From NCBI GenBank assembly GCA_017480385.1, contig JAFVAT010000005.1, positions 85,205 through 149,204 on the forward strand: a stretch of DNA of 64,000 bases, written 5' to 3'. The notes beneath the pieces were generated by a model. The model worked only from the letters and a program-made list of their open reading frames with translations. It did no database searches and was not told the DNA's origin. The DNA comes from Alphaproteobacteria bacterium. Its GTDB lineage: Bacteria > Pseudomonadota > Alphaproteobacteria > CAAGCB01 > CAG-977. Below are positions 325 through 44,278 of the stretch, piece by piece (within the stretch, counting starts at the first letter, position 1; every line of letters starts with the position of its first letter). The position numbers were made by a program, and so were the translations under genes.

Positions 325-1251
325 TCATTTCAGATATTTTTTCAAAAACGCCTTCATCAGCGCGGCAATTTCCCGATGATGAGATTCGAGCGCGAAATGC
401 CCGCTGTTCACAAAGCGGATTTCCGCATCCGGCAAGTCTTTTTTGAACGCTTCGGCACCCGCCGGAATGAAAGACGGATCGTTTTTTCCCCATACGGCAA
501 GCAAAGGCGGCTGATGATCGCGCATATATTTTTGAAATTCGGGATAAAGCGCCACATTCGAGCGATAATCCAGAATCAAATCGTTCTGCATTTCCGCCCG
601 TTCGGGCATTTGCACATAAGCGTAGTCCAACGTGTAACCGTCGGGGCCGACGCTGTTTTCCGGCGTGCCGAACGTGTATTGTCCGATAATGGTGTCAAGC
701 GCGTATGCCGAAGCGTATTGTTTGCGCAATTCGGGGGTCGGCTTTTTCCAGTATTCTTTCCGCGCTTCCCACTTTTTGCCCAAGCCTTCTTCATAGGCGT
801 TTCCGTTTTGAGAAACAATCGCCGTAATGCGTTCGGGGTGCCACATCGCCAGACGGAACCCGACCGGAGCGCCATAGTCGAACAGATACATCGCGTATCG
901 CTTCAATCCGAGCTTTTCCGTGAAAGCGTCAACCGTTTTTGCCAGATTGTCGAACGTGTAAGCGAACTTATCCCTTGAAGGCGCCTCCGTTTGGCCGAAG
1001 GACGGAAAATCGGGCGCAATCAGATGATATTCGTCCGCCAGTTCCGGCATCAGTTCCCGAAACATATGACTTGCGCTCGGAAACCCGTGCAGAAGCAGAA
1101 TCGCCGGTTTATCGGGATTTCCCGCTTCACGGTAAAAAACGCGGACACCGTTTGCATCAACCGTTTTATACCGCACCTGTCTTTCTTCCGCCCGCACTAT
1201 TGTCGTCATCAGCATAAAAATCCCGAACAAAAGAATAAGTCTTTTCAGCAT
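325..1251 (-). CDS. alpha/beta hydrolase (epoxide hydrolase/haloalkane dehalogenase-like), N-terminal signal peptide
   Basis: 308-aa ORF; hydrophobic N-terminus then 'LLLHGFPSASHMFRELMPEL...APDFPSFG' (HG oxyanion motif of alpha/beta hydrolase fold). Confidence 0.7.
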   Translation of the reverse strand: MLKRLILLFGIFMLMTTIVRAEERQVRYKTVDANGVRVFYREAGNPDKPAILLLHGFPSASHMFRELMPELADEYHLIAPDFPSFGQTEAPSRDKFAYTFDNLAKTVDAFTEKLGLKRYAMYLFDYGAPVGFRLAMWHPERITAIVSQNGNAYEEGLGKKWEARKEYWKKPTPELRKQYASAYALDTIIGQYTFGTPENSVGPDGYTLDYAYVQMPERAEMQNDLILDYRSNVALYPEFQKYMRDHQPPLLAVWGKNDPSFIPAGAEAFKKDLPDAEIRFVNSGHFALESHHREIAALMKAFLKKYLK

Positions 1252-1257
1252 GTTAAC

Positions 1258-2295
1258 TCAAGCTTCGTCCAAATCGACCAAAACATACTTGTCGCTTCCC
1301 ATGCCGAGCTCCCTCATATAGGAAAGCTGGCGCAGGCCGTGACGCGTTTCAATGCGTTCGCGCAGTTCCTTGCTTTTTTCGTTCAGCCGGTACACCAAAT
1401 CGACGGAAGCCTGATCAACCGCCAGAATATCATCGCTTGCCAGAATGCCGATATCGGGCGTCACAACCGGTTCGGCGTGAATCCCTTCGCAGTCGCAGCT
1501 GACGGACATATTCCGCAGCACGTTAACAAACGTAATGTTTTTGCCGAAATGATCGACCGTCGCTTTAGTCGATTCCGTCATGCGTTCCATGAACTCGTCC
1601 TGAGAAATGCTCCATTGTCCCTGCCCCGGATACGTATGAATCATCGCCTTGCCGATTCGCCCGTCCGCCATGCCGATCCCGATGTTTTTATTGGAACCGC
1701 CGAAGCCGCCCATTGTATGGCCCTTAAAATGCGTTAAAACCAATAGGGAATCGTATCTGTCCGCATGAGAACCAACGGACATTTCCTTGAAATATTTCCC
1801 GCCGGCAACCGGCCACATCCGCGTGCCTTCTTCGTCCATAATATCGACCGGCGCGAATGTCCAGCCGTTGACCTTTAACGTTTCCCGATGCTGTTCGGTC
1901 GTATAGCGGTCGCCTTCGTAATAGGTGTTCGTTTCAACGATTGTCGCGTCCGGAATATCGCTTTCAATCAGCTGTTTGACCCAGGCGGCGGGAATGATAT
2001 TCGGACCGTTTTTTTCTCCGGTATGCAGTTTGACAGCAATTTTGCCCTGCATATTCTGATTTACTTTCCGGTAAATCTTCTTCAATCCTTCGGGGCTTAA
2101 ATCCCGCGTAAAGTAAACGGTCGAAGCTTTGCCCTGCCGTTCTTCAACGGGAATATTAACCGAACTGCCCAAAGGTTCCGCCGCTTTTGCCATATCCTTT
2201 TCCATTTTTAATCCTTTCGCCAACGCCGCCTTGCCAAACGCGGTCAAAGCGACCGCCGCGCCCGTCAAACCTTTTACAAAATCGCGTCTGTTCAT
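1258..2295 (-). CDS. DUF362-domain protein with twin-arginine (TAT) signal
   Basis: 345-aa ORF; N-terminus 'MNRRDFVKGLTGAAVALTAF' is a TAT motif; 'CDCEGIHAEP' Cys motif; 7 nt downstream of the next gene. Confidence 0.55.
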   Translation of the reverse strand: MNRRDFVKGLTGAAVALTAFGKAALAKGLKMEKDMAKAAEPLGSSVNIPVEERQGKASTVYFTRDLSPEGLKKIYRKVNQNMQGKIAVKLHTGEKNGPNIIPAAWVKQLIESDIPDATIVETNTYYEGDRYTTEQHRETLKVNGWTFAPVDIMDEEGTRMWPVAGGKYFKEMSVGSHADRYDSLLVLTHFKGHTMGGFGGSNKNIGIGMADGRIGKAMIHTYPGQGQWSISQDEFMERMTESTKATVDHFGKNITFVNVLRNMSVSCDCEGIHAEPVVTPDIGILASDDILAVDQASVDLVYRLNEKSKELRERIETRHGLRQLSYMRELGMGSDKYVLVDLDEA

Positions 2296-2316
2296 CTTAT
2301 CCCTCTTCCAACGAAA

Positions 2317-2877
2317 TCACAATTGTTCCGCCGCCCATTTTTTCAGGTCTTCCGCAGAAACGCCGGCAGGAAAACGCTTGCCTTCAAGAACTTTCGCTTT
2401 CGGTGCCAAAGCCTGCATATTCTTGCCCGATTCACCGATCGGACTGACGCCGGAAGTCGCAAATGGAACAACCGTTTTGCCTGAAAAATCATACGCTTCC
2501 ATAAACGTGTCGATAATGGAGGGTTCTCTGTACCACCAGATCGGGAAGCCGACGAAAACGACATCGTATTGCGCTATGTTTTCGACTTTGGAAGCAATCG
2601 CCGGACGGCTGTTTCTGTCGTTCATTTCAACCGTGCTCCGGCTTTGCTTGTCCGTCCAGTCCAGATCCGCGTCCGTATAAACCTGCGCCGGTTTGATTTC
2701 AAACAAATCCGCGCCGACCGCTTCGGATAATCTGTTTGCCACGCCCGCCGTCACGCCGCTGGCGCTGAAATACGCGACCAGCATTTTTTTACCGCTCATA
2801 TTTGTTTCCTCCGCTTTTGTCTGAAAAGGCGTTAAAAAGGTTAAAACCGTTAAAAACGCCGATAAAAGTTTTTTCAT
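2317..2877 (-). CDS. exported flavodoxin-like protein
   Basis: 186-aa ORF; Sec-type signal 'MKKLLSAFLTVLTFLTPFQTKAEE' followed by flavodoxin-like 'KMLVAYFSASGVTAGVA...FVGFPIWW'. Confidence 0.6.
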   Translation of the reverse strand: MKKLLSAFLTVLTFLTPFQTKAEETNMSGKKMLVAYFSASGVTAGVANRLSEAVGADLFEIKPAQVYTDADLDWTDKQSRSTVEMNDRNSRPAIASKVENIAQYDVVFVGFPIWWYREPSIIDTFMEAYDFSGKTVVPFATSGVSPIGESGKNMQALAPKAKVLEGKRFPAGVSAEDLKKWAAEQL

Positions 2878-3506
2878 TAAACCGCTCCTATATTTTTGCC
2901 TAATTCATAGGCCTGTTGAGGATACTTTGTTTTGTTCACCGCTCCGACCGGCCAGACGCCCGAAGCGATCACCCGCCCCGCGTCCGTCCAGCCCAAATAG
3001 TTCAACAACGTTTCGTAATGCGAAATAATCGGCTGCGCTTCTTTGGCCGCCGTATCCGCGTACGTCATCAACAAAACGGCCTTTTTCGGGCGGTGAATCC
3101 GTCCGTTGATCGCGTAAAAGCGGTCGATTACGGTTTTTAACTGCGCCGAAATGCCGAAATAATACATCGGCGTAACAAATGCGACCGCATCGGCGTCAAC
3201 AATATGTTCGCGCACAAAATTGAAATCGTCGCTAAAGACGCACGGCCCGTCCATACCGCAATGATTGCAGGCGATACACGGGTGAACCTTTTTAAACGCC
3301 GCGTCAAAACGTTCGATATGATGACCGGCCTCTTCAGCGCCCTTGATAAAATTATCCGCCAAAGTCGCCGAATTGCCGTTTTTCCTCGGACTGCCCGTCA
3401 GAACCAGTATTTTCATTTGCTTTTCTCCGCCCGCTTTTAAAGCCTTCGGCAACATCGCCAACGCCCCCGCCGCCAAAGTGCCTTTGATAAAATCGCGCCT
3501 GTTCAT
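2877..3506 (-). CDS. NADPH-dependent FMN reductase / iron-sulfur flavoprotein family, TAT signal
   Basis: 209-aa ORF; 'MNRRDFIKGTLAAGALAML' TAT signal; 'KILVLTGSPRKNGNSATLAD' flavodoxin-like NADPH-FMN-reductase fold; start overlaps stop of flavodoxin gene (ATGA). Confidence 0.6.
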   Translation of the reverse strand: MNRRDFIKGTLAAGALAMLPKALKAGGEKQMKILVLTGSPRKNGNSATLADNFIKGAEEAGHHIERFDAAFKKVHPCIACNHCGMDGPCVFSDDFNFVREHIVDADAVAFVTPMYYFGISAQLKTVIDRFYAINGRIHRPKKAVLLMTYADTAAKEAQPIISHYETLLNYLGWTDAGRVIASGVWPVGAVNKTKYPQQAYELGKNIGAV

Positions 3507-3543
3507 TATTCCCCCGCTTTCAAACGACCCTTTATCTTCGCAT

Positions 3544-3566
3544 TTAAAGTCAGCTTTAAGTCAAGA
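3544..3566 (-). promoter_or_regulatory. palindromic operator-like motif TTAAAGtcagCTTTAAGTCAAG overlapping a CTTGAC -35-like box, 38-60 nt upstream of the flavoprotein operon start
   Basis: Perfect 6-4-6 inverted repeat TTAAAG/CTTTAA; near-identical copy at 10954-10975. Confidence 0.5.
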
Positions 3567-4814
3567 AAAAAGTTCAAAAACGGCGTTCAGCCTTTTCCGC
3601 CTCAGCATATCGCCGCGTTTTTCGGGCAAAGTCGCGGCTATTTCTTCCGCACTCAGCCGGATTGCCGCCGATTGTTTATAAACAGCGGAAACAAGGTTCA
3701 AAGCGCCCGCGAAATTCTTTTTCCATTCATTATCTGCGCGGTTGCAATATCTGTCCGCCAGACAGGCGATCAGGAACAATTCCGGTTTGTTTTCCGTCTG
3801 CTTGTAAATATCCCAAATAAAGTCGAATTTTTTGGCTTTTCTCATTTCGGAAAAATGATGAAAGCGCATATGGTTTTCGCAGACGAACCGGCACAGCTTC
3901 GCCGTAAAGGACGGCAGTTTCAGCCGCGCGCAAAAATCCATCCTCAACAGCTCCGCGCCCAGTTTGTCATGCCCGATGTGACGGGGGAATTCCGCCGGAT
4001 CGGTCAGCGGCTTGCCGATGTCGTGCAGTAAAACCGCCCAGTAAAGCGATTGCCTGGCCTGTTTGTTTAAATTGAAAAAGTCAACGTTCCTGTCCAGCCA
4101 TTTCAGCGCGCTGACGACGTGGCCGCCCGTGTTGCCTTCGGGGTGGTATTGCGGCTTTTCGGGACAGGAAAAAAGCATTTCCAAAGCGGGACAATAGGCC
4201 TCCAATGCTTTTAAAGCGTGCAAATTTTCGACAAACGCCCCGCCCGATTTCGCATCAAAGGCCTTGATAAATTCGGCGTAAAACCGTTCCGCCGGCAAAG
4301 AGGAAAGATCGCCTGATTCAGCCAAATGCACACATTCCGTCCGCGTCCGTTCCGTCAAGGTAAAGCCGAGCGTCGCCGCAAACCGCGCCGCCCGAACCGC
4401 GCGCAAAGGGTCTTCGCCGAAATGAGCCGGATCGACAACCTCCAATTCGCGGCGTTCCAAATCCTGCAAAGCCCGTTCGCTTACCCCCGTTTTGACAAGA
4501 TTTTCCGCTTCGTCCATAACAAGGCAATTCACGGTAAAATCGCGGCGCAACAAGTCTTCGTCAAGCGTTACGTCTTTGGAAAAGTCGAACGCAAACCCCC
4601 GATGACCTTTGCCCGTTTTGATGTCTTTGCGGGCTAGGGCGTGTTCCTCTTTGGTGTCGGGGTGCAGGAAAACGGGAAAGCCCGCCCCGACGCGCTGAAA
4701 TCCGACGGCCAGCATTTCCGCTTCGGTCGCGCCGACAACGACCCAATCCTTGTCTTCGGGCGCTTTTCCCAACAGCTTGTCCCTGACATATCCGCCGACA
4801 ATATAGCGTTTCAT
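3561..4814 (-). CDS. cca: CCA tRNA nucleotidyltransferase (poly(A) polymerase head + HD domain)
   Basis: 417 aa; 'YIVGGYVRDKLLG' nucleotidyltransferase head, 'RDFTVNCLVMD', HD motif 'LLHDIGK'. Confidence 0.8.
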   Translation of the reverse strand: MKRYIVGGYVRDKLLGKAPEDKDWVVVGATEAEMLAVGFQRVGAGFPVFLHPDTKEEHALARKDIKTGKGHRGFAFDFSKDVTLDEDLLRRDFTVNCLVMDEAENLVKTGVSERALQDLERRELEVVDPAHFGEDPLRAVRAARFAATLGFTLTERTRTECVHLAESGDLSSLPAERFYAEFIKAFDAKSGGAFVENLHALKALEAYCPALEMLFSCPEKPQYHPEGNTGGHVVSALKWLDRNVDFFNLNKQARQSLYWAVLLHDIGKPLTDPAEFPRHIGHDKLGAELLRMDFCARLKLPSFTAKLCRFVCENHMRFHHFSEMRKAKKFDFIWDIYKQTENKPELFLIACLADRYCNRADNEWKKNFAGALNLVSAVYKQSAAIRLSAEEIAATLPEKRGDMLRRKRLNAVFELFS

Positions 4815-5323
4815 TGGCTTTGCTTTTTCAAAAAGTCCAGAACAACCTGCGCCGTTTGTTCCGGCGTTTGATCACCGTTATCAATGATTAAATCCGAAAA
4901 ATCGGGATCATGACAGTGTTCTTCGTACATCTGCCGGATACGGGAAAGTTCCCATTCGGTCAGCTCCCGCGTTCCCCTGTTCATCAGGCATTTTTCCAAA
5001 GACGGCGATAACGTAATATTAAAAAAGTGCGTCTGCCCGTCTTCGTAACTTTTCCAGCGTTCGTAATTTTTCCGTACGATCGGATAGGCAAAGATCAAAA
5101 AGCGGCAAGAGTTGTCCGCCTTTTTTTGCCAAATAATCTGTTCCAGCCGGTCGACGCGTTCCCGCCAGCCGTCTTCCATTGACAACCCGAGCCGATCTTC
5201 CTCCTCATCGGACAAAAGATCGTCCACTTCAATAAACGACGCGTCAGGCAGGCTTTTGACCAAAAGCTTTGAAACGGTCGTCTTGCCCGCATTGATCGGG
5301 CCGTTGATGTTTAAAATAAGCAT
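4811..5323 (-). CDS. small P-loop NTPase/kinase-like protein
   Basis: 170 aa; Walker A 'NGPINAGKTT'; 4-nt overlap with cca start. Confidence 0.5.
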   Translation of the reverse strand: MLILNINGPINAGKTTVSKLLVKSLPDASFIEVDDLLSDEEEDRLGLSMEDGWRERVDRLEQIIWQKKADNSCRFLIFAYPIVRKNYERWKSYEDGQTHFFNITLSPSLEKCLMNRGTRELTEWELSRIRQMYEEHCHDPDFSDLIIDNGDQTPEQTAQVVLDFLKKQSQ

Positions 5324-5505
5324 TTTACAAGGTTACAAAAAAATCCGGCATAAATCAACACGGCGCAAAACCGCTTCATTTCACTTCCCGCGGTAAAAGC
5401 TTATACCGCTCCGCCGAACCCGCCCCGTTTGACAACCAGCACGACAGAACGTCCCAGATACGGTCAACAAAAAAGAAGCGTTAAAAAATCCCTCTTTTTG
5501 TAAAA

Positions 5506-6096
5506 TTATTCTTCCTTTTGCCAGACATTGATAACTTCCCCGATATACATCACATGAGGACTGATTTTGATTTTTTCATACAGTTCCGTCGCTTTATCGT
5601 CCAACAGTTCTTTTTGGAAAGGAATTTTGTAAATCGTTTTGCATTCGATTGCCAGATTCCCTTCTTTAAAAACAGGATTGCCGAGTTCCGTAAATTCCGG
5701 TGTCAAGCCGGCGGCTTTCAGCTTGTCACCGTCGCGTCCCGAATGTGACCCTATATACGCCAAAGCTTTCCGTTGCTCCTTGGGAAAACCAACAACGGTA
5801 AAGTATTCGTTTCTATCCATAAAGTCATTCGTGTAACGTTCGGGTGCGACATAAACGGTTACAACCGGTCTTTTCCATAAAACGCCGATGCTTCCCCAAC
5901 CGATCGTCATCGCGTTCATCTTGTCTTTATTGCCGGACGCCAGAGCCGCCCAATCTTTCTGAAACAGAGTGACGGGATTTTTAACGTCCGCCAAAGAAAT
6001 TTTTTTCCACCTCTCCTCCATTACCGATTTGCCGTCTTCGGCATACGCGGCGGAAGAAAACATCAAAAGTGTTATTATCAGAAAATTCAGCATCAT
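5506..6096 (-). CDS. exported flavin-reductase-like (FMN-binding split-barrel) protein, paralog A
   Basis: 196 aa; signal peptide 'MMLNFLIITLLMFSSAAYA'; ~80% aa identity to ORF 9299..9883. Confidence 0.6.
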   Translation of the reverse strand: MMLNFLIITLLMFSSAAYAEDGKSVMEERWKKISLADVKNPVTLFQKDWAALASGNKDKMNAMTIGWGSIGVLWKRPVVTVYVAPERYTNDFMDRNEYFTVVGFPKEQRKALAYIGSHSGRDGDKLKAAGLTPEFTELGNPVFKEGNLAIECKTIYKIPFQKELLDDKATELYEKIKISPHVMYIGEVINVWQKEE

Positions 6097-6105
6097 AGCC
6101 GTTCC

Positions 6106-7062
6106 TTACAATTTTTCATTAAAGAATTTTGTCAGCTTGTCCGCAATCTGTTCAACGTATTCCGGCACAAAGTATGTCTGAATATGCGTTGCGCCTTTGA
6201 TTTTGAACAATTCCTTGTCCTTTGTTCCGGTCGCTTTGGCAAAGGCGTCCTCGGTCATGTACAGAGAATCCGCCTTTTCGCCGGCAATCATCAATAAAGG
6301 CTGATTGATCAGCTCGATCTGATCGGTCGCGTCCCACGTCATCAGCTCCATCAGACTGCTTTCCGTATATTCAAACGTGGAATTCGGATGAGCATATGTC
6401 CGCATATAATATTGAAAGCCCTCGCGGTACAAATCAAACGGCAGTTTGGCGGCCTGTTCGTCTGTAACGCCCGCCATGGAACCGACCAGCCTTCAATCGT
6501 CCGATTGGGCGGTTTTCAGCGTGTACTCGCCGCCGCCGCAAATGCCCGGTATTCCGATCCGGTCGGCATCAACACCGGCGAATGTCGATATGTAATCAAT
6601 CATACCGTGAATGGATTCTTCCCGCAAAGTCGGTTTGTCGGTATGCCTCGGTTCGCCTTCGGACGCCCCCTGATAAGCCGCGTCCGCCGCAATCGTGATA
6701 TAGCCCTGTTCCGCCAGTTTTTGCGCGTAAAATCCAGCAACTTGTTCTTTCACGCCGCCGTTCAGATGCGCCACCGCGATCGCCGGATATTTTTTGTCCT
6801 TGTCGTAATTCGCGGGCAAGTAAACGTTCGCGGCGATTTTCAATCCATTCTGCATATACGTTACGGGCTTGATATTGACTTGCCCCGCGACGTTTTGAGC
6901 TATCGCCCCGTCATAAACCAGCCCGAACGGATTGCCCGCCGTCGAAACGCAGCCGCCGGATAAAAGAGCTGCTCCTATCACTGTCATTTTCAAAAATCCT
7001 TTCATTGCGTGTTTCCTTATTTCACCACTTTTTTCCAGAATTGAACGGCTTTGTCCGTCCAA
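6106..7062 (-). pseudogene. dienelactone-hydrolase-family lipoprotein interrupted by a single in-frame TGA (6493-6495)
   Basis: ORFs 6493..7062 and 6106..6477 are in the same frame, separated only by TGA plus 5 sense codons; lipoprotein signal 'MKGFLKMTVIGAALLSGGC'; Cys-nucleophile motif 'GICGGG'; likely start at 7005 or 6987. Confidence 0.45.
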
Positions 7063-7949
7063 CCCTCGGCGTTTGTCCCTGTGCCAAGACCGAATCCGTG
7101 TCCCACATTCGGATACAAATGAAAATCCGTTTCAACTCCCATTTTGTTCAACCGCTCGGATTGTCTTTGCATTCCGCGCGGATCGGCAATGCCGTCATAT
7201 TCGCCGACCGCCATAAAGACCGGAACGGTTTCGGGCGTGTAATCGCTGTGTCCGGTATAATTAACCACGACCATTGCCGGCTTCGGCAAGTCCGCCCCGC
7301 CGAACGCTTTTGCGCCATAAGTGCCGATATAAGCCGCCATGCGCGCGCCGGCGGAATCCCCCCAAACAGAATAGTTTTCCGTTGAAACTTCAAGCTTTTT
7401 ATGATGTTCAAAAATATATGTCAGAGCGTTGGCTAAATCCTCAACCGCCCAATTAGCCGAACCGCCCCGATATTTCAGCACAAAAGCGTTATAGCCCTTT
7501 TTGCTTAAATCCAACGCGATCGGAAACCCGCCGTGAAGGCTTCCGACATAAACAAATCCGCCGCCGGGACAAATGACGGCGAACGGCGCATCAGGCTTTC
7601 CTTTAAAGAAAAACAAGCCGGTATGTTTCTGTCTGTCATCGCCGTCAGGATAAAAGTTGTAAAACGTCCGATGCGTTTTAAGGTAATTCAGCCCCTTGAG
7701 CACGTCATTCATTCTGATTTCGGAAAGCCACGGCAGAATACTGCCTATGTTTTTGATTTGAGTCTCCGGCGGGTTGCGGCTTATCTCGTCCCACGGCAGG
7801 ATTTTATCGGCATAGCCTTTAAATTCCGGCGCGTTCAAGATGTCCCGAATCGTGCTGTTTTCATCAAACATTTTGATTTCCTCAGCCGCCGCTGATCCGA
7901 TTGCGCTTAATAGTGTCAATAAACAAAATCCCCAAAACCGCATTGCCAT
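7017..7949 (-). CDS. alpha/beta hydrolase fold-3 esterase/lipase (GDSAG motif), signal peptide
   Basis: 310 aa; 'MAMRFWGFCLLTLLSAIGSAAA' signal; 'HGGGF', 'GDSAGARMAAY' hormone-sensitive-lipase-family motifs. Confidence 0.7.
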   Translation of the reverse strand: MAMRFWGFCLLTLLSAIGSAAAEEIKMFDENSTIRDILNAPEFKGYADKILPWDEISRNPPETQIKNIGSILPWLSEIRMNDVLKGLNYLKTHRTFYNFYPDGDDRQKHTGLFFFKGKPDAPFAVICPGGGFVYVGSLHGGFPIALDLSKKGYNAFVLKYRGGSANWAVEDLANALTYIFEHHKKLEVSTENYSVWGDSAGARMAAYIGTYGAKAFGGADLPKPAMVVVNYTGHSDYTPETVPVFMAVGEYDGIADPRGMQRQSERLNKMGVETDFHLYPNVGHGFGLGTGTNAEGWTDKAVQFWKKVVK

Positions 7950-7967
7950 ATTCGCACATCATTCCCA

Positions 7968-8585
7968 TCACTGTTTATCCTTTTCGCCCGAATAATTTTG
8001 CAGAACAGGCCCGACGACCGTATCAAAGAAACGGTCGCTCCACCGGCTTGGCACAAAAACGCCGTCCGACATACACCAGCAGGTCATCATGCCGTAAAGT
8101 TCGGAAATAATGATCTGCGTTAAAAGATCAACAGGCGTGTTTGCGTTCAGCTCATTTTTCCGGACGGCCTGTTCCAAGATGCTTTTTAACATATCGACAT
8201 CAAACCGCCATTTGGCGTTATCCATATTTTCCGGCGCCTTGCCCGGATCGATCACGCCGCGTATCCATTCACGGCAAATGTTTATGCCGTAACGTTCGAC
8301 TTCCATATTAAATTGTTCAAAGTAATAGCGCATGCGTTCCGTGAACGGTTTGTTTTTCATGTTTTGCATATTCCGCTCTATCTTTTTGAACAGTCCGCGG
8401 CAAATTTCGTAACCGATATCTTCCTTATGCTTAAAGTGCGTATAAAAAGTGCCCTTCGCACAACCGCAGGCCTGCGTTATTTCTTCCACAAACAGATCGT
8501 CAAAGCTTTTTTTCTCCAACAGCTTAATCGTTGCCTCAATCAATTTTTGCTTTGTTTTAAGAGCGTTTTCCTGTCGTTTGGTCAT
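7968..8585 (-). CDS. TetR-family transcriptional regulator
   Basis: 205 aa; N-terminal HTH 'FVEEITQACGCAKGTFYTHFKHKEDI'. Confidence 0.8.
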   Translation of the reverse strand: MTKRQENALKTKQKLIEATIKLLEKKSFDDLFVEEITQACGCAKGTFYTHFKHKEDIGYEICRGLFKKIERNMQNMKNKPFTERMRYYFEQFNMEVERYGINICREWIRGVIDPGKAPENMDNAKWRFDVDMLKSILEQAVRKNELNANTPVDLLTQIIISELYGMMTCWCMSDGVFVPSRWSDRFFDTVVGPVLQNYSGEKDKQ

Positions 8586-8622
8586 TATTCTTTCTCCGTA
8601 TTTGATAAATATACGTTTTCAA

Positions 8623-8650
8623 TGACTCAGAGTCAATGACTTGAAGTCAT
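8623..8650. promoter_or_regulatory. tandem operator palindromes TGACTCaGAGTCA (8623-8635) and ATGACTTgAAGTCAT (8636-8650) upstream of tetR
   Basis: Two perfect inverted repeats 38-65 nt upstream of the tetR start codon. Confidence 0.55.
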
Positions 8651-8660
8651 CTTTATCAAA

Positions 8661-8701
8661 AACAACAAAAAAACCGGAGCAACGTTTTTAACATCGCTCC
8701 G
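8661..8701 (-). terminator. intrinsic terminator after flavin reductase gene
   Basis: Minus-strand hairpin CGGAGC(n15)GCTCCG followed by T-run. Confidence 0.5.
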
Positions 8702-8722
8702 ATCAATTTGAGGCTCGGAATC

Positions 8723-9286
8723 TTATTTTTTCAAAGCCAGTCCGTCATGGAAAGCCCGTCCGACCTTGTCGCCCAGAACGCGGTAAACGTGAGCCGCGCC
8801 GTCATAGGAAATCGGTCGAAGCTTGCCCAAATCGACGTTTCCTTTTTCGTCAAGAACGCTTTCGTCCGCCGCCATATTGACGACCCGTCCGACAACGCGG
8901 TAATCGCCGTCCTCTTCTTCCATTTCAATGACTTCGCATTCCAGAGTCAGCGGAAATTCCTCGATCACGGGCGCATCGACAAATTCGCTTTTCGTCACGT
9001 GAACGCCCGCTTTTTCGATTTTGTTGACGTTATTACCGCTTTCAACGCCGAAATAATCGGCAACCAGCATCGTTTCCGGCGTAGCAAATGACAAAGTGAA
9101 CGCCCGTTTCAGCATCAGATTGTCCGTTGTCTTGTGCGGCCCGAGCAAAAAAGTTACTTCGTGATAGCCGCACTGCGTCCCCCACGCGGCGTTCATCGCG
9201 TTCGGCACGTCGTTTTCGTCATACGTCGCGATAATAAATACGGGCAACGGCGCAACGACCGTCTTGTTTCCTAAATTCTTCTTCAT
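8723..9286 (-). CDS. flavin reductase-like domain protein (cytoplasmic)
   Basis: 187 aa; 'VVAPLPVFIIATYDENDVPNAMNAAWGT' is typical of the flavin reductase (DIM6/NTAB) family. Confidence 0.6.
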   Translation of the reverse strand: MKKNLGNKTVVAPLPVFIIATYDENDVPNAMNAAWGTQCGYHEVTFLLGPHKTTDNLMLKRAFTLSFATPETMLVADYFGVESGNNVNKIEKAGVHVTKSEFVDAPVIEEFPLTLECEVIEMEEEDGDYRVVGRVVNMAADESVLDEKGNVDLGKLRPISYDGAAHVYRVLGDKVGRAFHDGLALKK

Positions 9287-9298
9287 CGTTTTTTTCCT

Positions 9299-9883
9299 TT
9301 ATTTTTTCCGCCAAACGTTCACGACTTCACCGATATACGTCACGTGCGGACTGATTTTTATCCTTTGATATAAATCCTGCGCTTTGTCGTCCAACAGCTC
9401 TTTTTTAAACGGCTCTTTATAAATGATTTTGCATTCGATCGCCAGATTGCCCTCCTTAAAAACGGGATTGCCCAGTTCGGTGAATTCCGGCGTTAATCCG
9501 GCGGCTTTCAGCTTGTCGCCGTCCCGCCCCGAATGCGTTCCGATATAAGCCAGAGCCTCCCTTTTCGATTCGGGAAAGGCAACAACTGTAAAATAGTCGT
9601 TCCTGTCCATAAACTCGTTCGTATAGCGTTCCGGCGCAACATAAACCGTCACGATCGGCCTTTGCCACAAAACGCCGATCGTTCCCCAGCCGATAGTCAT
9701 CGCATTCATGCTGTCTTTGTTTCCCGCCGCCAAAGCCGCCCAATCCTTGTGAAACAAAGCCACCGGATTTTTAACGTCCTCAATTGAAATTTTCTGCCAT
9801 TCCGGTCCCATTTTCCGCTCCTGTGCCTGTGCTGTTCCCGATAAAACAAAAATCAGGAAAAACAAGAAATAAATCCGCTTCAT
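9299..9883 (-). CDS. exported flavin-reductase-like protein, paralog B
   Basis: 194 aa; signal 'MKRIYFLFFLIFVLSGTAQA'; ~80% identical to 5506..6096. Confidence 0.6.
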   Translation of the reverse strand: MKRIYFLFFLIFVLSGTAQAQERKMGPEWQKISIEDVKNPVALFHKDWAALAAGNKDSMNAMTIGWGTIGVLWQRPIVTVYVAPERYTNEFMDRNDYFTVVAFPESKREALAYIGTHSGRDGDKLKAAGLTPEFTELGNPVFKEGNLAIECKIIYKEPFKKELLDDKAQDLYQRIKISPHVTYIGEVVNVWRKK

Positions 9884-9892
9884 TGATTTTTC

Positions 9893-10918
9893 CTATTTCA
9901 ATTTATTGTAATCAGAATCGCCGACTTCTTCCAGCCATTCGGTCGAAGCGCCTTCAGCCGGAACGCTCATCGCGATATGCGTGAACCAGCTGTCCTTCGC
10001 CGCGCCGTGCCAATGCTTGACTTCGGCGGGAATATGGACGACATCGCCGAGGTGCAGTTCCTGTGCAGGTTTGCCCCATTCCTGATACCAGCCGCGCCCC
10101 GCCGTCACCAGCAAAATCTGACCGCTCTTGTGATGAACATGCCAGTTGTTGCGGCACTTCGGTTCAAAGGTCACGTTCGCAATGCCGACTTCCTCTTTAT
10201 TCAGCGGCTGTAAATAGCTTGTCCCCTTGAAGTATTTGGCATAAGCCATGTTTTCCTGCCCGAAACCAAACAAAATGTCCTGCGCGGCAGCCTTTTGCGC
10301 GACATTCAGGATTTCCGCCACCTGTTCATCGGTCAACCCGTTATGCTTGCCAACCGCAATATGACTGTTCAGCTGGCTTTCGACGCCGTTACGTACGGAA
10401 AGCATCGCGATCGTCGCCACTTCTCTGGTCTGCCAATCCACATTGTCGCGCGCGAAAATGTCGCCGAACAAATGCGCTTTCAGATATTCGTCGATCGCCG
10501 GCGCGAAATCAAACAGAGGCCCTTTAACCTCCCGTCCCGTCAGCTTTGTCTGATTCGCCGCGCCGTATTCCAAAGCCGTTCCTTTTGGCTTAGCGGAAGG
10601 CAAGCTCCCCTGTTCATCCTTGTTTCCGCGTTCGTTAACAACCGTCATCAACGTGCCCAAAGCGTTTAAGGCCCTCGGGAATCCACAGTAAGCGTAAGCC
10701 TGCGTCAGAATTTCCTTAAACTCGTTGACCGTCACACCGTTATCCAAACCGTTGATCAAAGCCTGTTTCAGCCCTTTTTGATCGCCTTTCGCCGTATAGG
10801 CTGCAACCTCGGCGATTGTTTTTTGTTTCGCGGTCAAAGCTCCGTTTGCCATTGCGTTTCCTCCCGTAAAAAGAATAAGCGCGCCCAGAAACAGCGCAGA
10901 TAAGTTTCTATTCGACAT
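9893..10918 (-). CDS. carboxymuconolactone decarboxylase (CMD) domain + cupin domain fusion, signal peptide
   Basis: Likely start at 10918 (MSNRNLSALFLGALILF...); cupin motif 'HHKSGQILLVTAGRGWYQEWGKP...GDVVHIPAEVKHWHGA'. Confidence 0.55.
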   Translation of the reverse strand: MSNRNLSALFLGALILFTGGNAMANGALTAKQKTIAEVAAYTAKGDQKGLKQALINGLDNGVTVNEFKEILTQAYAYCGFPRALNALGTLMTVVNERGNKDEQGSLPSAKPKGTALEYGAANQTKLTGREVKGPLFDFAPAIDEYLKAHLFGDIFARDNVDWQTREVATIAMLSVRNGVESQLNSHIAVGKHNGLTDEQVAEILNVAQKAAAQDILFGFGQENMAYAKYFKGTSYLQPLNKEEVGIANVTFEPKCRNNWHVHHKSGQILLVTAGRGWYQEWGKPAQELHLGDVVHIPAEVKHWHGAAKDSWFTHIAMSVPAEGASTEWLEEVGDSDYNKLK

Positions 10919-10953
10919 CTTGCACTCCTTGAGTTTTTTTATTAGATTAGCTT

Positions 10954-10975
10954 TTAAAGCTGACTTTAAGTCAAG
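10954..10975 (-). promoter_or_regulatory. operator-like motif TTAAAGctgaCTTTAAGTCAAG with embedded TGACTTtAAGTCA palindrome, upstream of the CMD-cupin operon
   Basis: Matches the 3544-3566 motif and the tetR operator half-sites. Confidence 0.5.
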
Positions 10976-11029: not shown

Positions 11030-11593
11030 GTTGTGGTTTGACGCAAAATAATCATCTGCTATAATTCCGTCTGCATATAATTCGACAATCCCCGGCGTTG
11101 CGGTTTGACGCAAAATAATCATCTGCTATAATGGGAGCGGGGAGGAATCACCCGCTCTTTACGTTGCGGTTTGACGCAAAATAATCATCTGCTATAATGA
11201 ATGATCAAGGATTCGGCGGTGTTGATTAGTTGCGGTTTGACGCAAAATAATCATCTGCTATAATCGGACGGGGGATGATAAATATCTCCGCGTTGTTGCG
11301 GTTTGACGCAAAATAATCATCTGCTATAATTCAAGCGCATTATCGATGTCGATGCATAAGTTGCGGTTTGACGCAAAATAATCATCTGCTATAATCAAAG
11401 TCCTTAAAAATGAGACGTAACGGCAGTTGCGGTTTGACGCAAAATAATCATCTGCTATAATTCTTGACCAGCTCTAAAGTCAGTCAAAAAAGTTGCGGTT
11501 TGACGCAAAATAATCATCTGCTATAATTAGGAGCAGTAAGGATGAAGGTTTGCGTTTGTTGCGGTTTGACGCAAAATAATCATCTGCTATAAT
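11030..11593 (+). CRISPR. CRISPR array, 9 x 36-bp repeats (GTTGCGGTTTGACGCAAAATAATCATCTGCTATAAT), 8 spacers of 29-31 bp
   Basis: Repeats start at 11030 (degenerate, C5T), 11097, 11163, 11229, 11295, 11360, 11426, 11492, 11558; unique spacers; each repeat carries TTGACG-N16-TGcTATAAT on the + strand. Confidence 0.95.
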
Positions 11594-11599
11594 ATCAAT

Positions 11600-11632
11600 G
11601 AAAAAAGCCTTTGAAAACAAAGGCTTTTTTCT
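11600..11632. terminator. bidirectional intrinsic terminator between CRISPR array and cas2
   Basis: AAAAAAGCCTTTGaaaaCAAAGGCTTTTTT: 8-bp stem, A-run 5' and T-run 3'. Confidence 0.7.
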
Positions 11633-11643
11633 TTATTTTTCGT

Positions 11644-11973
11644 TTAAAAAAGTGTCAGCTGCTCCGGTTTTTCCGATATCAAAACAGGTTTTCGATTCCG
11701 AAATGTGATAATGTCGGCAAATTGTTTGTCCGTAAAAAACAAAATGCTGACGTTACCGTCCGGCGGAATCTGCTTTTTTATTCTGTTTATAAAAGGCGTC
11801 GCCATTTCCCGCGTGCCGCAAAAGCGGAAATAAACCGAAAACTGGCTCATTTCAAAGCCTTCGTCCAACAAATAATTCCGAAACGCCGTCGCCCGTTTGC
11901 GTTCTTCGGGTTCCGCCACGGGCAAATCGAACATTACCATCATCCACATCAGATTGTATCCCGTCACCGACAC
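11644..11973 (-). CDS. cas2: CRISPR-associated endoribonuclease Cas2 (GTG start)
   Basis: 109 aa; 'MSVTGYNLMWMMVMFDLPV' Cas2 N-terminus; begins 1 nt after cas1 stop. Confidence 0.9.
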   Translation of the reverse strand: MSVTGYNLMWMMVMFDLPVAEPEERKRATAFRNYLLDEGFEMSQFSVYFRFCGTREMATPFINRIKKQIPPDGNVSILFFTDKQFADIITFRNRKPVLISEKPEQLTLF

Positions 11974-11974
11974 A

Positions 11975-12883
11975 TTAAAGGTTCCACAGATTTTTTCCGG
12001 TCATCGCTTCGGGCAAGTTCAGACTGTCCGCTTCCCCCAAAACGCATTTTTGCAAAGAAACCGCCAGATCGGAAATCAGATACCCGACTTCACATTCCCG
12101 ATCGCCCGTTTTCACCGTACGGGACAGCAACGCGACAAGCCGTTTTTTCACTTCCGGCGTAACAGAGCCGAACTCGTCCTCATCCGTCATACGATAGACG
12201 CAAAAATCAACCAGAGGGCGGAACGGTTCCATCAAATCGTCCGCCAGACGCATCGCATTGTATTGATTTTGATGATGTATCCCCAAAGACGGATGCAATC
12301 CCGCCCCCGTAATCGCCCGAACAACCGAGGATCGTAAAATCGTATAACCGTAATTCAGCATCGCGTTAATGCCGTCCTGCGCCCTATCCCTGCGGAAATC
12401 CTTGCCGAACAACGTTTGAAAATAATATTTTGCCCCCTGCCCTTCCAAATTTTTGGGATCGCCGTTTTTGACCTGCTTTGCCATATAACGCAGAGACGCG
12501 TCCGGCTTTGAACAGGTTTTCAAAACTTCCGCCTGTTGCGTCAGTTTGGCTTGAATGATGTCTTTCCAATAACGGTCGGCGGCGGATTGCTTCATTCTAG
12601 CCTGAGCCGTCAGAATGTCGCCCTGCAAATGGTGGTTTTCCAGAGGGATCATAATCGAAGCGGGAACGTGATTCGCTCCGCAAACAACGAAAGGCGCATT
12701 CTGTTCCGCCAACCGGACAAGCAGATTGTTTGAATAGGTCAAGCCGTGCGCGTTGGCAATCACCGCCCCGATCTGATCGATCGGCACGCGCCCGACCTCT
12801 TGCGCGTTTTCATATACGACCATAAAACCGTGATCGACCGCCAGATAGCGATTATCCTGCGTGATTTCGATGATTCTATCCAT
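11975..12883 (-). CDS. cas1: CRISPR-associated endonuclease Cas1 (type II)
   Basis: 302 aa; Cas1 fold motifs; start overlaps cas9 3' end by 8 nt. Confidence 0.95.
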   Translation of the reverse strand: MDRIIEITQDNRYLAVDHGFMVVYENAQEVGRVPIDQIGAVIANAHGLTYSNNLLVRLAEQNAPFVVCGANHVPASIMIPLENHHLQGDILTAQARMKQSAADRYWKDIIQAKLTQQAEVLKTCSKPDASLRYMAKQVKNGDPKNLEGQGAKYYFQTLFGKDFRRDRAQDGINAMLNYGYTILRSSVVRAITGAGLHPSLGIHHQNQYNAMRLADDLMEPFRPLVDFCVYRMTDEDEFGSVTPEVKKRLVALLSRTVKTGDRECEVGYLISDLAVSLQKCVLGEADSLNLPEAMTGKNLWNL

Positions 12884-15800
12884 CCGCCTGCCCTTCCGGA
12901 CGCTTCGGGTCTATCACCCGTCCGTCTATCGTCACGGTGATTTTACGTCCGTTATGTAATCTGAATTGTTCAGCAGATGCGGCCCAAGAAAGTTTATCCG
13001 CTTCTTCTTTCGCAATAAGATGAGGACGTAAATAAAACAAAATACCTGTCATCTTTTTAACTCGGGCGATGATTGTTTCCCCGTCTTTTTCATAAGCGAC
13101 CATATCGTCAATATGCAGACGCATAATCAGTTTGGCGTGGGCGTCCGTATGACGCCATTTCGGAACGAAGTCTTTCTGATGGGCGCAATAGTTCGGAATG
13201 ATCTCGATTTGCCATTTTCCCGCGTTTTTCCCTCTGTCGGGACAGTAAATCTCCGCATACGCGTTTCCGCCGTAAATCGCGTAACGATACGGTTTCCCGT
13301 TTTTATCTTTAAAAGGCAGAATGACATTCTTGTTTCTTTCCCGATACGTCCTGACCTTGCGCGTGTTCCTGTCGGCAAAATAGCTCTGAATGATTGCTTC
13401 GTGTTCGGATTTGTCTTTCCCGTCCAACAAAGCGCGGATTTTATCCGCCGTTCCCGCTTGGTCGATGATGATATCCAAATCCGCCTCCGTTTTAAACTCG
13501 GTCACGGGGACGCGCTGAATCAGTTTCCACGTCCTTTTCTTATCTCCCTCGCCCGCAAAGCCGTAATACGTTTCCTCGTGCAATTTGGCGACCGTCTTTC
13601 CTTCCTGAATAGCTTTTTGCGGGTTGCCGTGGTCGGGTTTATGAGAAATCACCATACGGTCGAACGCGTCCTGCAATTCCCGCAGTCTGAATTCCGGATA
13701 AGGCAGATGAGGCGCCTTTTCCTGCGGCATTTGCGTGGAATAGTCACGTCGTTCCGTGGCATATTTCTGCAACGTCCCCCGTCCCGTGCAAGCGACAATA
13801 AACGCGTCCAAAGCGTGGTGGCGGTGATCCGTCCTATCCTTTTGATCTTCGGGGAACAGAGATTCCAATCCCCAATGGTGGCGCAGTTTCGCCGTCAGCT
13901 GTCCGGGGATGCCCCACACCTTCGACGGATTTGCGGCAAAGCACAAATACTGACGCGCCACCCGCGCCATATATTGCGTATCGGTCAGCATACGCGCCAG
14001 AACATCGTCCAAGTCCTGAAAAGCGTCTTCCCTGAACTTTTTCGCGCGGTTTTTCTTTTCGTCGTGCTTTAAGGAAAAATTTTCAACGCGCCCCAGAATC
14101 TCATTCCAACGTTTTTCATCGGCGTGGAAAGCCTCCCACGGAGAACGATTGCCTTTTTCACGGTTGCACGCACGGCAGGAAATGACTTTGTTGGTGCGGG
14201 CGTCCGAATATGACCGCGCAAACGGCAATAAATGCTCGATTTCAAATTCATCGGAAAACAGATGTTCGAAATTTATTGGCTTGCCGCAGAACGGACAACA
14301 CCTTTGAGACGAATCGTCGGAGGAATCCTCCCACAACTTGTATTTCATCCTGTTGTCATAAGAGTTTTTGACGCCTAAACGCTCCAATTCTTTGGCGATA
14401 CGGTCGTTATCTTTCGTGTTTTCCGTTTGCAACTTGTTCAATTCGTCTTTGGCTTTTTTACCCAACTTCAACTCGCGCGCCAATTCGACGACGATCGATT
14501 CGGGATGACCATAGCGTTTTACCAACTCGTTAATCAACTTTCTGACTTGATTCAGCGCGATGTGAACGGTCGGATTATTGATTTTTCCCCAGTATTTTTC
14601 GGGAAAATCCTTGTCCGCCGCGGCGTTCGTTCCGCCGATGACCGCTTTTGGCATCGCTTCCCCGTAATACGGCAACTCGTCATACACATCGCCCGTTTCC
14701 GGATTGATGAAAGTGTTGTAATATTCGGGTAAAGTCCCTTTCGTCTTTAAAGAAAACGTGTAGCCTGCCGATTCGACCGCCTGATGATACGGCTGTCCTT
14801 CGCGCAGAAAAGGATTTATTTTTCCTAACGCCTTCAAGCTTAAAGACGCCGTGCCGTCTTCCAAAGACGTATGCGCAACGGCTTCCGCCTGCTCCGGACT
14901 TAAAGCGTATTTGTCTTTTAATTCTTCAATCAGTTTCGATTCGTCCTGCGCGTTTAAAAGCAACGCCACGATTTCGTTTTGTTTTTCTCTGTCAAAAGAA
15001 AACCATTCCTTGCCGAAACAAGACTCATCCGCCAACTGCGCCGCCGTCGTGTCCGCGTCAAGTCCTTTGCGTTTTTCCGATTCCAGATTAAACGACACTT
15101 TCGGATTGACGCCGAACGGTTTGAGCAATTTTTTCGCCGCCGACCAGGTCAATGTCCGCTTTTTCTTATCCAAAGCGGAAAAGTCCTTTGCCGTGAAACG
15201 GTATAAAACCTCACGTTCCTCCGGCGTTAAAAAGCGTTCATCATCATCGTAAAGAATTTTCAACTGGTTGATCTGTTGCAATAAACGGCTTTGCTGAAAA
15301 GCAGGATAAGCGCAATACGCGCGGCGTTCGCCTTCCTCGAACTGACATAATCCCAATTCGGGCTGTTTCAACGGACGCTGATTGAAAATGATGTGGAAAA
15401 GATCGTCTTCGATTTCTTTCGACAAACCTTGCTTCGTCATAATTTGCCGAAATTCATCTTCGTACATTGCACGGTCGGGATAAAGCGGATAGGACGCTTT
15501 GCTCTTGACCACGATTGATTTTGCGCGAACAGGAACAAAATCCTGCGTGGAGGTTTTATCTTTGTTCATCAGGTACAGATATTCCCCCAAAGTCCGCGCG
15601 CCCGCTTCCGTCATACGTTTTCTTGTTTCGGCAATCGCGGTCTTCATCGCGCCCGTTTCCGCATCCTTTTTATCCGTCTTTAAATTGCTTTTAAACCCTC
15701 TGCGCTGATTGATGTGAAACAAAGCCCGCCCCAATTCATAGGGAGTCAGCTTTTCATCCAACGCCTTCGCGCGTAAAAAGTAGGGATCAAGCATTTCCAA

Positions 15801-44139: not shown

Positions 44140-44278
44140 ATCAGTCGTCCTTCATTTCAGAAAAGCTGAAATTCCTTTACCATAAGTTAACTATACAAGA
44201 AAGAAAAAAAGAAGAAAAGTTTTTTTGAAAAAATCGACAAAAAAAGAATATGACATTCTTGTGACATCTTTGTAACGC

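Follow-up and report, generated by a model that had tools for sequence, protein, structure and literature searches.

Organisation of the locus

The window, a 64-kb stretch of an alphaproteobacterial contig, contains two minus-strand operons preceded by closely similar sequence motifs, sites A and B, together with a tetR gene (Table 1). The site A operon runs on past the window start with ABM and DXS genes, and site A itself shares bases with the stop codon of the CCA-adding enzyme gene that precedes it (3561-4814). The true ATG of the CMD-cupin gene behind site B is at 10918, not 10978. The tetR product is a member of an uncharacterised subfamily in which cysteines are conserved (CWCMSDG motif), and its gene has a promoter with a 17-bp spacer between TTGACT (8631-8636) and TATATT (8608-8613).

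Table 1. Coordinates of genes and predicted regulatory elements in the window
Feature	Position	Strand	Remarks
Site A operon	325-3506	-	
FMN reductase with TAT signal (first gene, site A operon)	2877-3506	-	
Flavodoxin_4 (site A operon)	2317-2877	-	
DUF362 (site A operon)	1258-2295	-	
Alpha/beta hydrolase (site A operon)	325-1251	-	
Site A, predicted MerR-type promoter/operator of the TAT-FMN reductase operon	3534-3565	-	register as in 106 metagenome sites and E. coli soxS
Site A -35 TTGACT	3559-3564	-	
Site A 7-4-7 inverted repeat CTTAAAG-ctga-CTTTAAa	3543-3560	-	
Site A -10 GAAGAT	3534-3539	-	19-bp spacer
tetR, TetR/AcrR-family repressor	7968-8585	-	205 aa; Pfam TetR_N; 449 homologues; alignment
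Proximal TetR operator TGACTCAGAGTCA (predicted)	8623-8635	.	overlaps tetR promoter -35
Distal TetR operator TGACTTGAAGTCA (predicted)	8637-8649	.	14 bp centre-to-centre from proximal
Intrinsic terminator of the CMD-cupin/flavin-reductase unit	8672-8704	-	15-pair stem, then T-run; just upstream of tetR promoter
Site B operon	8723-10918	-	
CMD-cupin protein with signal peptide (first gene, site B operon)	9893-10918	-	
Two flavin-reductase-like proteins (site B operon)	9299-9883, 8723-9286	-	
Site B, predicted MerR-type promoter/operator of the CMD-cupin operon	10944-10975	-	
Site B -35 TTGACT	10969-10974	-	
Site B inverted repeat CTTAAAG-tcag-CTTTAAa	10953-10970	-	
Site B -10 TAATCT	10944-10949	-	19-bp spacer
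TetR operator-like palindrome TGACTTTAAGTCA in site B	10961-10973	.	exact match; top matrix score

Site B (TTAAAGctgaCTTTAAGTCAAG) occupies 10954-10975, as the preliminary description had it, and site A (TTAAAGtcagCTTTAAGTCAAG) starts at 3544, likewise as described, and ends at 3565 instead of 3566. The two sites are indeed identical at 18 of 22 bases, the four others, which form the central 4-mer, being exactly reverse-complemented. Both carry cTTGACT on the coding strand, and their proximal ends lie upstream of the first gene by 38 nt in site A (ATG at 3506) and by 36 nt in site B (ATG at 10918), within the 30-60 nt first reported. The full 22-mer is not the palindrome it was taken for; its symmetry is that of an inner 6-4-6 inverted repeat, TTAAAG-N4-CTTTAA, or, with one mismatch, of a 7-4-7 repeat, CTTAAAG-N4-CTTTAAG. 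This repeat sits in the promoter spacer and overlaps the 3' end of the -35 hexamer (CTTAAAG-N4-CTTTAAa, occupying positions 5-22 and matching in 13 of 14 arm bases); its right arm is complete at only six of seven positions in both sites because A replaces G/C at position 22. At the conventional 17-bp spacing, the candidate -10 hexamers GCGAAG and GCTAAT are both poor, and a simple sigma-70 scan called neither promoter, which is explained by the 19-bp reading given in Table 1.

The shared motif marks probable MerR-type promoters

A metagenome scan with the exact 18-base pattern CTTGACTTAAAGNNNNCTTTAA (CTTGACTTAAAG-N4-CTTTAA) detected the sequence common to sites A and B, cTTGACTTAAAG-N4-CTTTAA, in at least 120 contigs; the matches listed come from unrelated soil and gut bacteria. 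Among these matches, 106 distinct sites could be compared: TAnnnT follows 19 bp after the -35 hexamer in 92 and xAnnnT (positions 26-31) in 100, while a -10 element shifted by one base in either direction is present in none. The -10 element of site A is weak in this comparison, a G at position 26 being found in only two of the 106 listed sites. The centre of the repeat takes 33 different forms among the matches listed (TTAA 33 times, CTGA 16, TCAG three, and 30 others), and the inverted central 4-mer of the pair is simply an unconstrained operator centre.

In 74 of about 120 contigs among the matches listed, an ORF for a MerR-family protein touches the motif, mostly in divergent orientation. 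The 68 distinct regulators concerned (60 divergent placements, four directly downstream) include 49 that match the SoxR model TIGR01950 and 13 that match NmlR; the Fe-S signature CIGCGCLS-x4-C is present in 13 of the 68, one of which is 48% identical to E. coli SoxR. Directly 3' of the motif, the listed contigs encode SDR (16), FMN_red (5), DXS (4), AKR (3), CMD (3), cupin (2), flavodoxin_4 (1) and DUF362 (1) proteins. Homologues of the CMD-cupin protein, FMN reductase, flavodoxin and DUF362 protein of the window thus stand downstream of the motif elsewhere, with no TetR nearby. On this comparative evidence, the shared motif is predicted to be an ordinary operator for a MerR-family activator of the SoxR/NmlR-AdhR clade, embedded in a sigma-70 promoter, and sites A and B are predicted MerR-type stress-activated promoters.

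The same contig contains a third copy of the motif, 8.5 kb past the window (L210, 20890-20907), which precedes an AKR-ferredoxin gene, is built as TTGCTT-19 bp-TATCCT with the centre TTAA and has no TetR palindrome. Searches by tblastn with approximate CueR, SoxR and MerR queries, by an HTH regular expression and with HMMs of the motif-adjacent MerR proteins found no MerR-family gene in the window, in about 20 kb of its flanks, in L209-L211 or in the tetR loci. Since the window encodes no such protein, the regulator must act in trans. A general search for inverted-repeat promoters with a 19-bp spacer in alphaproteobacterial tetR loci yielded none besides those of the window.

Relation to SoxR, NmlR and AdhR operators

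SoxR, which controls E. coli soxS, is a redox-sensing [2Fe-2S] activator of the MerR family, and non-enteric SoxR regulons comprise oxidoreductases and similar enzymes. The soxS promoter (TTTACC-19 bp-TATACT) carries CCTCAAG-TTAA-CTTGAGG at positions 5-22 and thereby shares the register of sites A and B: a 7-4-7 repeat at the same positions, a 19-bp spacer and a -10 element at positions 26-31. Its TTAA centre is also the commonest one among the metagenome matches listed. The half-sites agree at five of seven positions (CCTCAAG in soxS, CTTAAAG here), and true SoxR orthologues with CIGCGCLS-x4-C stand divergently beside the CTTAAAG variant in 13 contigs among the matches listed. In contrast to soxS, the promoters of the window have the consensus -35 TTGACT, no soxR gene lies adjacent, and the targets are secreted flavoproteins and the CMD-cupin protein instead of soxS.

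The operator of B. subtilis AdhR is a 7-4-7 repeat, CTTAAAG-N4-CTTTAAG. A sequence search of the literature did not confirm the operator sequence of AdhR/NmlR; it returned only unrelated papers and T7 A1 promoter constructs. The motif-adjacent regulators of gut contigs are closest to NmlR (NF041849, 83-87 bits) and to the H. influenzae NmlR structures (PDB 5D8C, 5D90 and 5E01), which the regulator of L125 matches with an E value of 2e-28; as their scores stay below the curated cut-off of 175, they are relatives of NmlR rather than equivalogs. In NmlR operators, the -35 hexamer is embedded in the inverted repeat and the promoters are divergent and overlapping (PMC5001606), and the motif described here likewise has its -35 inside the repeat and occurs at divergent promoters. 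The classical NmlR/AdhR targets, the formaldehyde dehydrogenase genes adhC and adhA, are absent from the operons of the window.

The predicted operator of the TetR protein

Upstream of tetR, the palindromes TGACTCaGAGTCA (8623-8635) and ATGACTTgAAGTCAT (8636-8650) are found where they had been placed. Among orthologous tetR genes of gut and rumen MAGs, 78 distinct upstream regions share the sequence tGACtnnaAGTCATTGACTTTTAGTCA; the double palindrome lies 45-86 nt before the ATG in them, and GTCA-T-TGAC is invariant. This conservation identifies TGACYNNNRGTCA as the predicted operator of this TetR family, and the two palindromes of the window are, by the same comparison, very probably genuine operators. 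In tetR loci totalling 1.3 Mb, exact matches to the operator pattern are found almost only upstream of tetR. L050 has a secondary double operator ahead of an aldo/keto reductase gene, and L064 has one at its end. With two copies of TGACYNNNRGTCA 14 bp apart covering the -35 hexamer of its promoter, tetR would be autorepressed.

As in QacR and TetR, a protein with a TetR_N HTH domain is combined here with palindromic operators over its own -35 and with cargo genes that follow; the present operator is conserved together with the protein across genomes. The closest relatives of known structure, B. subtilis FadR and MtrR, are distant from the tetR product (E values of 1e-13 to 1e-17). A literature search by sequence for the tandem operator with its 14-bp spacing found only unrelated papers and T7 A1 promoter constructs.

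Sites A and B compared with the TetR operator

A matrix built only from the orthologous tetR operators ranks site B first in the window (20.1 bits), followed by the two palindromes at tetR (19.0 and 16.2 bits); the next best position reaches 12.4 bits. Similarly, with up to one mismatch allowed, TGACTNNNAGTCA occurs in the window only at the two sites upstream of tetR and in site B, each time exactly (0.55 expected). The earlier observation that site B holds a palindrome of the tetR type is thus borne out by a perfect copy. This copy shares bases with the -35 hexamer and with the left arm of the MerR-type repeat, and its register relative to the -35 is that of the palindromes upstream of tetR. 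Site A reads TGACTtaaAGCTG, lacks a second TetR half-site and scores 6.2 bits, a background value that places it at about rank 17 of 64,000 positions. The proposal of one TetR for all three transcription units is therefore supported for tetR and site B, and not for site A.

The TetR palindrome of site B is perfect only because the free central 4-mer happens to be TCAG. A TCA centre is present in about 7.5% (9/120) of the MerR-type sites among the matches listed, so the palindrome could be a by-product of the MerR-type operator. With a perfect TetR operator inside a MerR-type operator, the CMD-cupin promoter is probably under dual control, site B being probably also repressed by TetR.

Weighing the alternatives

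The initial proposal, that a single local TetR binds half-sites of the form TGACT(T)-N-(A)AGTCA at the tetR promoter as well as at sites A and B, with the 22-bp motif as an extended operator, draws on the matrix ranks of site B and the tetR sites and on other genomes, in which tetR is often followed by genes for FMN reductase and flavodoxin_4 homologues. Site A would have to be bound through its one TGACT half-site and a second one in direct orientation 11 bp downstream, but half-sites in direct orientation or 11 bp apart are found in none of the 78 orthologous operators, and this layout was rejected; about 16 other, unrelated positions of the window score as well as site A. Apart from TGACT, the bases common to the two sites (TAAAG-N4-CTTTAA) moreover fall outside the TetR consensus, and they recur in the metagenome contigs beside genes for SoxR-like and NmlR-like MerR proteins without TetR. 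The supposed identity of the 22-bp motif with the TetR site is consequently not supported, and control of all three units by TetR is very unlikely. It is likely that two different elements are present: a MerR-type operator common to sites A and B, and a TetR operator at tetR and within site B.

The likeness of sites A and B could also stem from ancestry instead of a common factor, if they were paralogous promoter copies whose loop had been flipped through a hairpin or template switch. The 18 identical and four exactly reverse-complemented bases fit such an event, and a hairpin between the 6-bp arms is conceivable. However, the flanks of the two sites do not align outside the motif, the same 18 bases surround all 33 centres found in unrelated bacteria among the matches listed, and the third copy on the contig differs in its centre and -35. 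Because the centre is unconstrained in the 106 listed sites, no hairpin-loop inversion or template switching is needed, and functional constraint accounts for the identity without any special mutation, which makes copying very improbable. Chance resemblance between two AT-rich promoter regions that share a 12-mer and a 6-mer is scarcely credible. By a combinatorial estimate, exact 12-mer repeats, taken one by one, should turn up many times in 64 kb, but TTAAAGNNNNCTTTAAGTCAAG with up to three mismatches matches the window only at sites A and B (two observed, 0.05 expected), and given site B, the expectation for a second 18/18 match in the window is about 2e-6. The sites also agree in start-codon distance, orientation and 19-bp geometry. 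Chance is effectively refuted by the window expectation, the recurrence of the motif in metagenomes, its linkage to MerR genes and the fixed 19-bp spacing.

Proposed regulation and significance

With a MerR-type operator at both sites, control would follow the model of SoxR, CueR and NmlR, in which a putative dimer sits on the 7-4-7 repeat and the over-long 19-bp spacer keeps the promoter poor. Oxidation or alkylation of the sensor by redox-cycling compounds, quinones or aldehydes would cause the dimer to untwist the DNA, and the untwisting would switch on the downstream oxidoreductase operons. At the CMD-cupin promoter, TetR would block the left MerR half-site together with the -35, while the MerR-type factor would activate. 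Site A, with its CTGA centre and no TetR site, would be expected to be under MerR-type control only.

These results correct a plausible but wrong regulon assignment, as the two operons appear to be joined by a trans-acting MerR-type (SoxR/NmlR-like) activator and not by the neighbouring TetR. For a TetR subfamily that is widespread in gut and rumen bacteria and uncharacterised, they also provide a well-supported predicted operator, two tandem copies of TGACYNNNRGTCA placed 14 bp apart. The MerR-type promoter element is itself of a known kind; CTTGACTTAAAG-N4-CTTTAAG with a 19-bp spacer represents a broadly distributed variant of the SoxR box in soil and gut bacteria, which marks genes for oxidoreductases and detoxification, DXS included. 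Both elements lend themselves to annotating stress regulons in metagenome-assembled genomes.

More tentatively, site B may constitute a compact two-input gate, in which a TetR repressor and a MerR-type activator act on fully overlapping operators that share one -35, and the operon fires only when TetR is off and the MerR-type sensor is active. The cysteine-rich (CWCMSDG) TetR, which travels with variable flavoprotein/CMD/AKR cassettes in gut and rumen anaerobes of several phyla, might be a thiol-based sensor of electrophiles or oxidants; this combined proposal is possible rather than probable. In a footprinting search for relatives, sites A and B were carried only by identical strains (L001-L003 and L209). 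Of 80 loci, 29 have CMD-cupin genes after tetR; in the nearest relative, L084, the CMD-cupin gene comes directly after tetR with no separate promoter.

Sites A and B as probable MerR-type promoters

Site A, upstream of the TAT-signal FMN reductase operon, and site B, upstream of the CMD-cupin operon, have the sequences given in their preliminary description, except that site A ends at 3565 and not at 3566. Even with three mismatches allowed in its 18 fixed bases, the shared motif has no match in the window other than A and B (0.05 expected). Both fit a promoter form with a 19-bp spacer, TTGACT taaagctgactttaaatgc GAAGAT at site A and TTGACT taaagtcagctttaaaagc TAATCT at site B. Upstream of FMN-reductase/flavodoxin homologues in the fetched loci there are likewise promoters that read cTTGACT-inverted repeat-TAnnnT and have a 19-bp spacer.

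Scanning a metagenome collection for CTTGACTTAAAGNNNNCTTTAA retrieved at least 120 contigs from soil, gut and other samples. Counting the T of TTGACT as position 1, TAnnnT occupies exactly positions 26-31 in 92 of the 106 distinct sites among the matches listed, and xAnnnT does so in 100, with no -10 element shifted by one position in either direction in any of the 106. Among these matches, the palindrome is extended by positions 12 and 15 (T/C and A/G) and the central 4-mer is otherwise free, occurring in at least 33 variants, with CTGA found at least 16 times and TCAG at least three times. Those parts of the sites on which the selection did not rest behave like a promoter-operator.

An HMM built from the MerR proteins directly downstream of the motif detected a MerR-family ORF touching the motif on at least 74 contigs among the matches listed. 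The 68 distinct regulators among them are mostly divergent from the motif (60, with 4 directly downstream); 49 match the SoxR model TIGR01950 (best E 3e-62), 13 match NmlR, and 13 carry the SoxR cluster motif CIGCGCLS-x4-C, one being 48% identical to E. coli SoxR. The gut Firmicutes-like regulators among these matches are closest to the HiNmlR structures 5D8C, 5D90 and 5E01 (E 2e-28) and match NF041849 NmlR below its cut-off.

In the E. coli K-12 soxS promoter, TTTACC-19 bp-TATACT, the repeat CCTCAAG-TTAA-CTTGAGG spans positions 5-22, and CTTAAAG-N4-CTTTAAG lies in exactly the same register in the window. The operator of B. subtilis AdhR, which we take to be CTTAAAG-N4-CTTTAAG, provides a lead only. 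MerR regulons have 19-20-bp spacers, with a 9-bp half-site for each DNA-binding domain of the regulator, and -35 elements are characteristically embedded in NmlR operators (PMC5001606). We infer that both sites are MerR-type promoters and that their motif is a SoxR-box/NmlR-operator variant, i.e., of a known kind. The window and about 20 kb of contig beyond its ends yielded no MerR-family gene; the regulator would therefore be encoded elsewhere in the genome.

Genes behind the MerR-type motif

Among the matches listed, the genes directly behind the motif on metagenome contigs encode SDR (16), FMN reductase (5), DXS (4), DinB (4), aldo/keto reductase (3), CMD (3), cupin (2), flavodoxin_4 (1) and DUF362 (1) proteins, and also MerR proteins themselves. 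Homologues of the CMD-cupin, FMN reductase, flavodoxin_4 and DUF362 genes of the window are found right behind the motif, on contigs that, among these matches, contain an NmlR-like gene in divergent orientation and lack TetR. A third copy, TTGCTT-TAAAGTTAACTTTAAGGTG-TATCCT with a 19-bp spacer and the centre TTAA, is located on the same contig about 8.5 kb past the 3' end of the window (L210 20890-20907), upstream of an aldo/keto-reductase-ferredoxin fusion gene, and contains no TetR palindrome. A further FMN reductase gene is arranged divergently to the fusion gene.

DXP synthase (DXS) directly follows a MerR-type motif in several gut contigs of the metagenome set (L097, L121, L131, L147, L155 and L174), and a DXS gene closes the window cluster just past the 5' end (L001 18706-20463). 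DXS is not an expected member of a redox or electrophile regulon.

The TetR operator and its reach

The preliminary description had proposed that one local TetR-family repressor could control tetR, site A and site B. In all, 80 genomic loci with TetR orthologues of 48-65% identity were fetched, and 110 nt upstream of each gene were read. Related TetR proteins occur in MAGs of rumen and gut origin that are labelled Alphaproteobacteria, Gastranaerophilales and others. The double palindrome present upstream of tetR in the window (8623-8635 and 8636-8650) recurs upstream of practically all 80 orthologues. Anchored on the invariant core, 78 distinct operator regions yield the consensus tGACtnnaAGTCATTGACTTTTAGTCA, with two 13-bp palindromes 14 bp apart and the -35 element TTGACT within the proximal one; likewise, the proximal palindrome covers the -35 of the window tetR promoter, TTGACT-17 bp-TATATT (8636-8608). 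Within 1.3 Mb of tetR loci, exact copies of the pattern are found almost exclusively upstream of tetR. The exceptions are second full double operators at L050 12567-12595 and L064 13461-13489 (end of L064), suggesting that this TetR family can control more than one promoter. Both belong to Gastranaerophilales genomes and are 2.5-3.5 kb from tetR; the one in L050 precedes a divergent aldo/keto reductase gene by 60 nt.

A position weight matrix derived from heterologous operators only ranks site B at the top of the window (20.1 bits), followed by the tetR-upstream sites 8636-8650 (19.0 bits) and 8622-8636 (16.2 bits), versus 6.2 bits for site A, a score equal to that of a lone half-site and similar to those of about 16 unrelated window positions. 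The proposed TetR control is therefore supported for tetR and site B, and not for site A. The palindrome form noted at site B and tetR is real: TGACTNNNAGTCA matches the two tetR sites and site B and nothing else in the window. The original observation is confirmed, and its interpretation partly supported. The next-best window match (44176-44190, TTAACTTATGGTAAA, 12.4 bits) is weak and probably not a real operator; the gene 37 nt downstream of it (43405-44139, minus strand) encodes a 244-aa protein without Pfam match and follows a PAS histidine kinase gene.

The papers searched contained nothing matching the TetR operator sequence, and the nearest solved structures are distant relatives of this TetR. 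The operator appears new in sequence only, its kind being already known, and the subfamily is uncharacterised. In alignment A1 of the TetR proteins, C62, C104, C169 and C171 are invariant or near-invariant, with a CWCMSDG motif. The subfamily occurs in Alphaproteobacteria, Gastranaerophilales, Verrucomicrobia-labelled and other gut/rumen MAGs with varying oxidoreductase cargo, which suggests a mobile cassette, possibly with thiol-based sensing.

Proposed mechanism

A dimeric MerR-type regulator would sit between -35 and -10 on the 7-4-7 repeat, with basal activity held low by the 19-bp spacer; oxidation or alkylation of the sensor would untwist the DNA and turn on the genes for exported flavoproteins, CMD/AhpD-like proteins and hydrolases. 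The site A and B operons would then form a defence module (redox or electrophile), which agrees with neighbours such as the glutathione peroxidase and the rubredoxin-containing metallo-beta-lactamase-fold protein encoded in the relative L084.

TetR would repress its own gene via the tandem operator. The free centre of site B is TCAG, which, by chance or selection, completes TGACTtaaAGTCA in the same register as in the proximal tetR operator, so that TetR bound there would cover the left MerR half-site together with the -35. CMD-cupin is typical TetR cargo, following tetR in 29 of the 80 loci (directly in L084), and a TCA centre is found in only 9 of 120 MerR-type sites among the matches listed; together, this makes TetR control of site B likely. 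Site A, with the centre CTGA, should be TetR-independent. Less ordinary are the predicted repressor and activator operators at site B, which would overlap fully on one -35.

Gene arrangement and neighbouring features

The window derives from metagenome scaffold ERZ28655154 scaffold_167 (121 kb), and every gene of the described cluster is on the minus strand. The CCA-adding enzyme and P-loop kinase-like genes, both housekeeping-like, interrupt the oxidoreductase cluster between the genes near tetR and the operon behind site A; the motif at site A and the CCA gene overlap at the stop codon of the latter.

Features of the window and 7-3-7 promoters of Gastranaerophilales tetR loci
Feature	Coordinates	Strand	Remark
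Site A	3544-3565		TTAAAGtcagCTTTAAGTCAAG
Site B	10954-10975		TTAAAGctgaCTTTAAGTCAAG
CMD+cupin	9893-10918	-	signal peptide; true ATG 10918, AAGGAG ribosome-binding site
Two flavin-reductase-like genes		-	after CMD+cupin
Intrinsic terminator	8672-8704		after the two flavin-reductase-like genes
tetR	7968-8585	-	
Hydrolases, further flavin reductase		-	after tetR
P-loop kinase-like gene	within 3561-5323, with CCA gene	-	170-aa protein
CCA-adding enzyme	3561-4814	-	HD domain
TAT-signal FMN reductase	2877-3506	-	behind site A
flavodoxin_4, DUF362, alpha/beta hydrolase		-	after TAT-signal FMN reductase
cas9	12876-16076	-	
cas1	11975-12883	-	
cas2	11644-11973	-	
CRISPR array	11030-11594		9 repeats of GTTGCGGTTTGACGCAAAATAATCATCTGCTATAAT
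7-3-7 promoters	L048 3658, 11732, 12376; L056 12731; L058 11653; L060 11667, 15683; L065 11735, 16760; L067 11617; L068 11667; L071 113; L073 12179; L074 12441, 14165		

Gastranaerophilales tetR neighbourhoods contain another 19-bp-spacer promoter family, TTGACT-GATAGctgCTATCAG-...-TAnAAT, with a 7-3-7 repeat, some copies of which mix in CTTAGAG/CTCTAAG arms. These promoters lie in front of flavodoxin_4, FMN reductase and, probably, aldo/keto reductase genes, and a MerR gene could not be found within 10 kb of them.

Directly beside site B is a type II CRISPR-Cas locus (11030-16076). Every repeat contains, on the plus strand, a TTGACG-16-TATAAT promoter that is near consensus and has an extended TG. 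The array looks like one with type II-C repeat-embedded promoters, from which crRNA transcription would be convergent with the cas genes.
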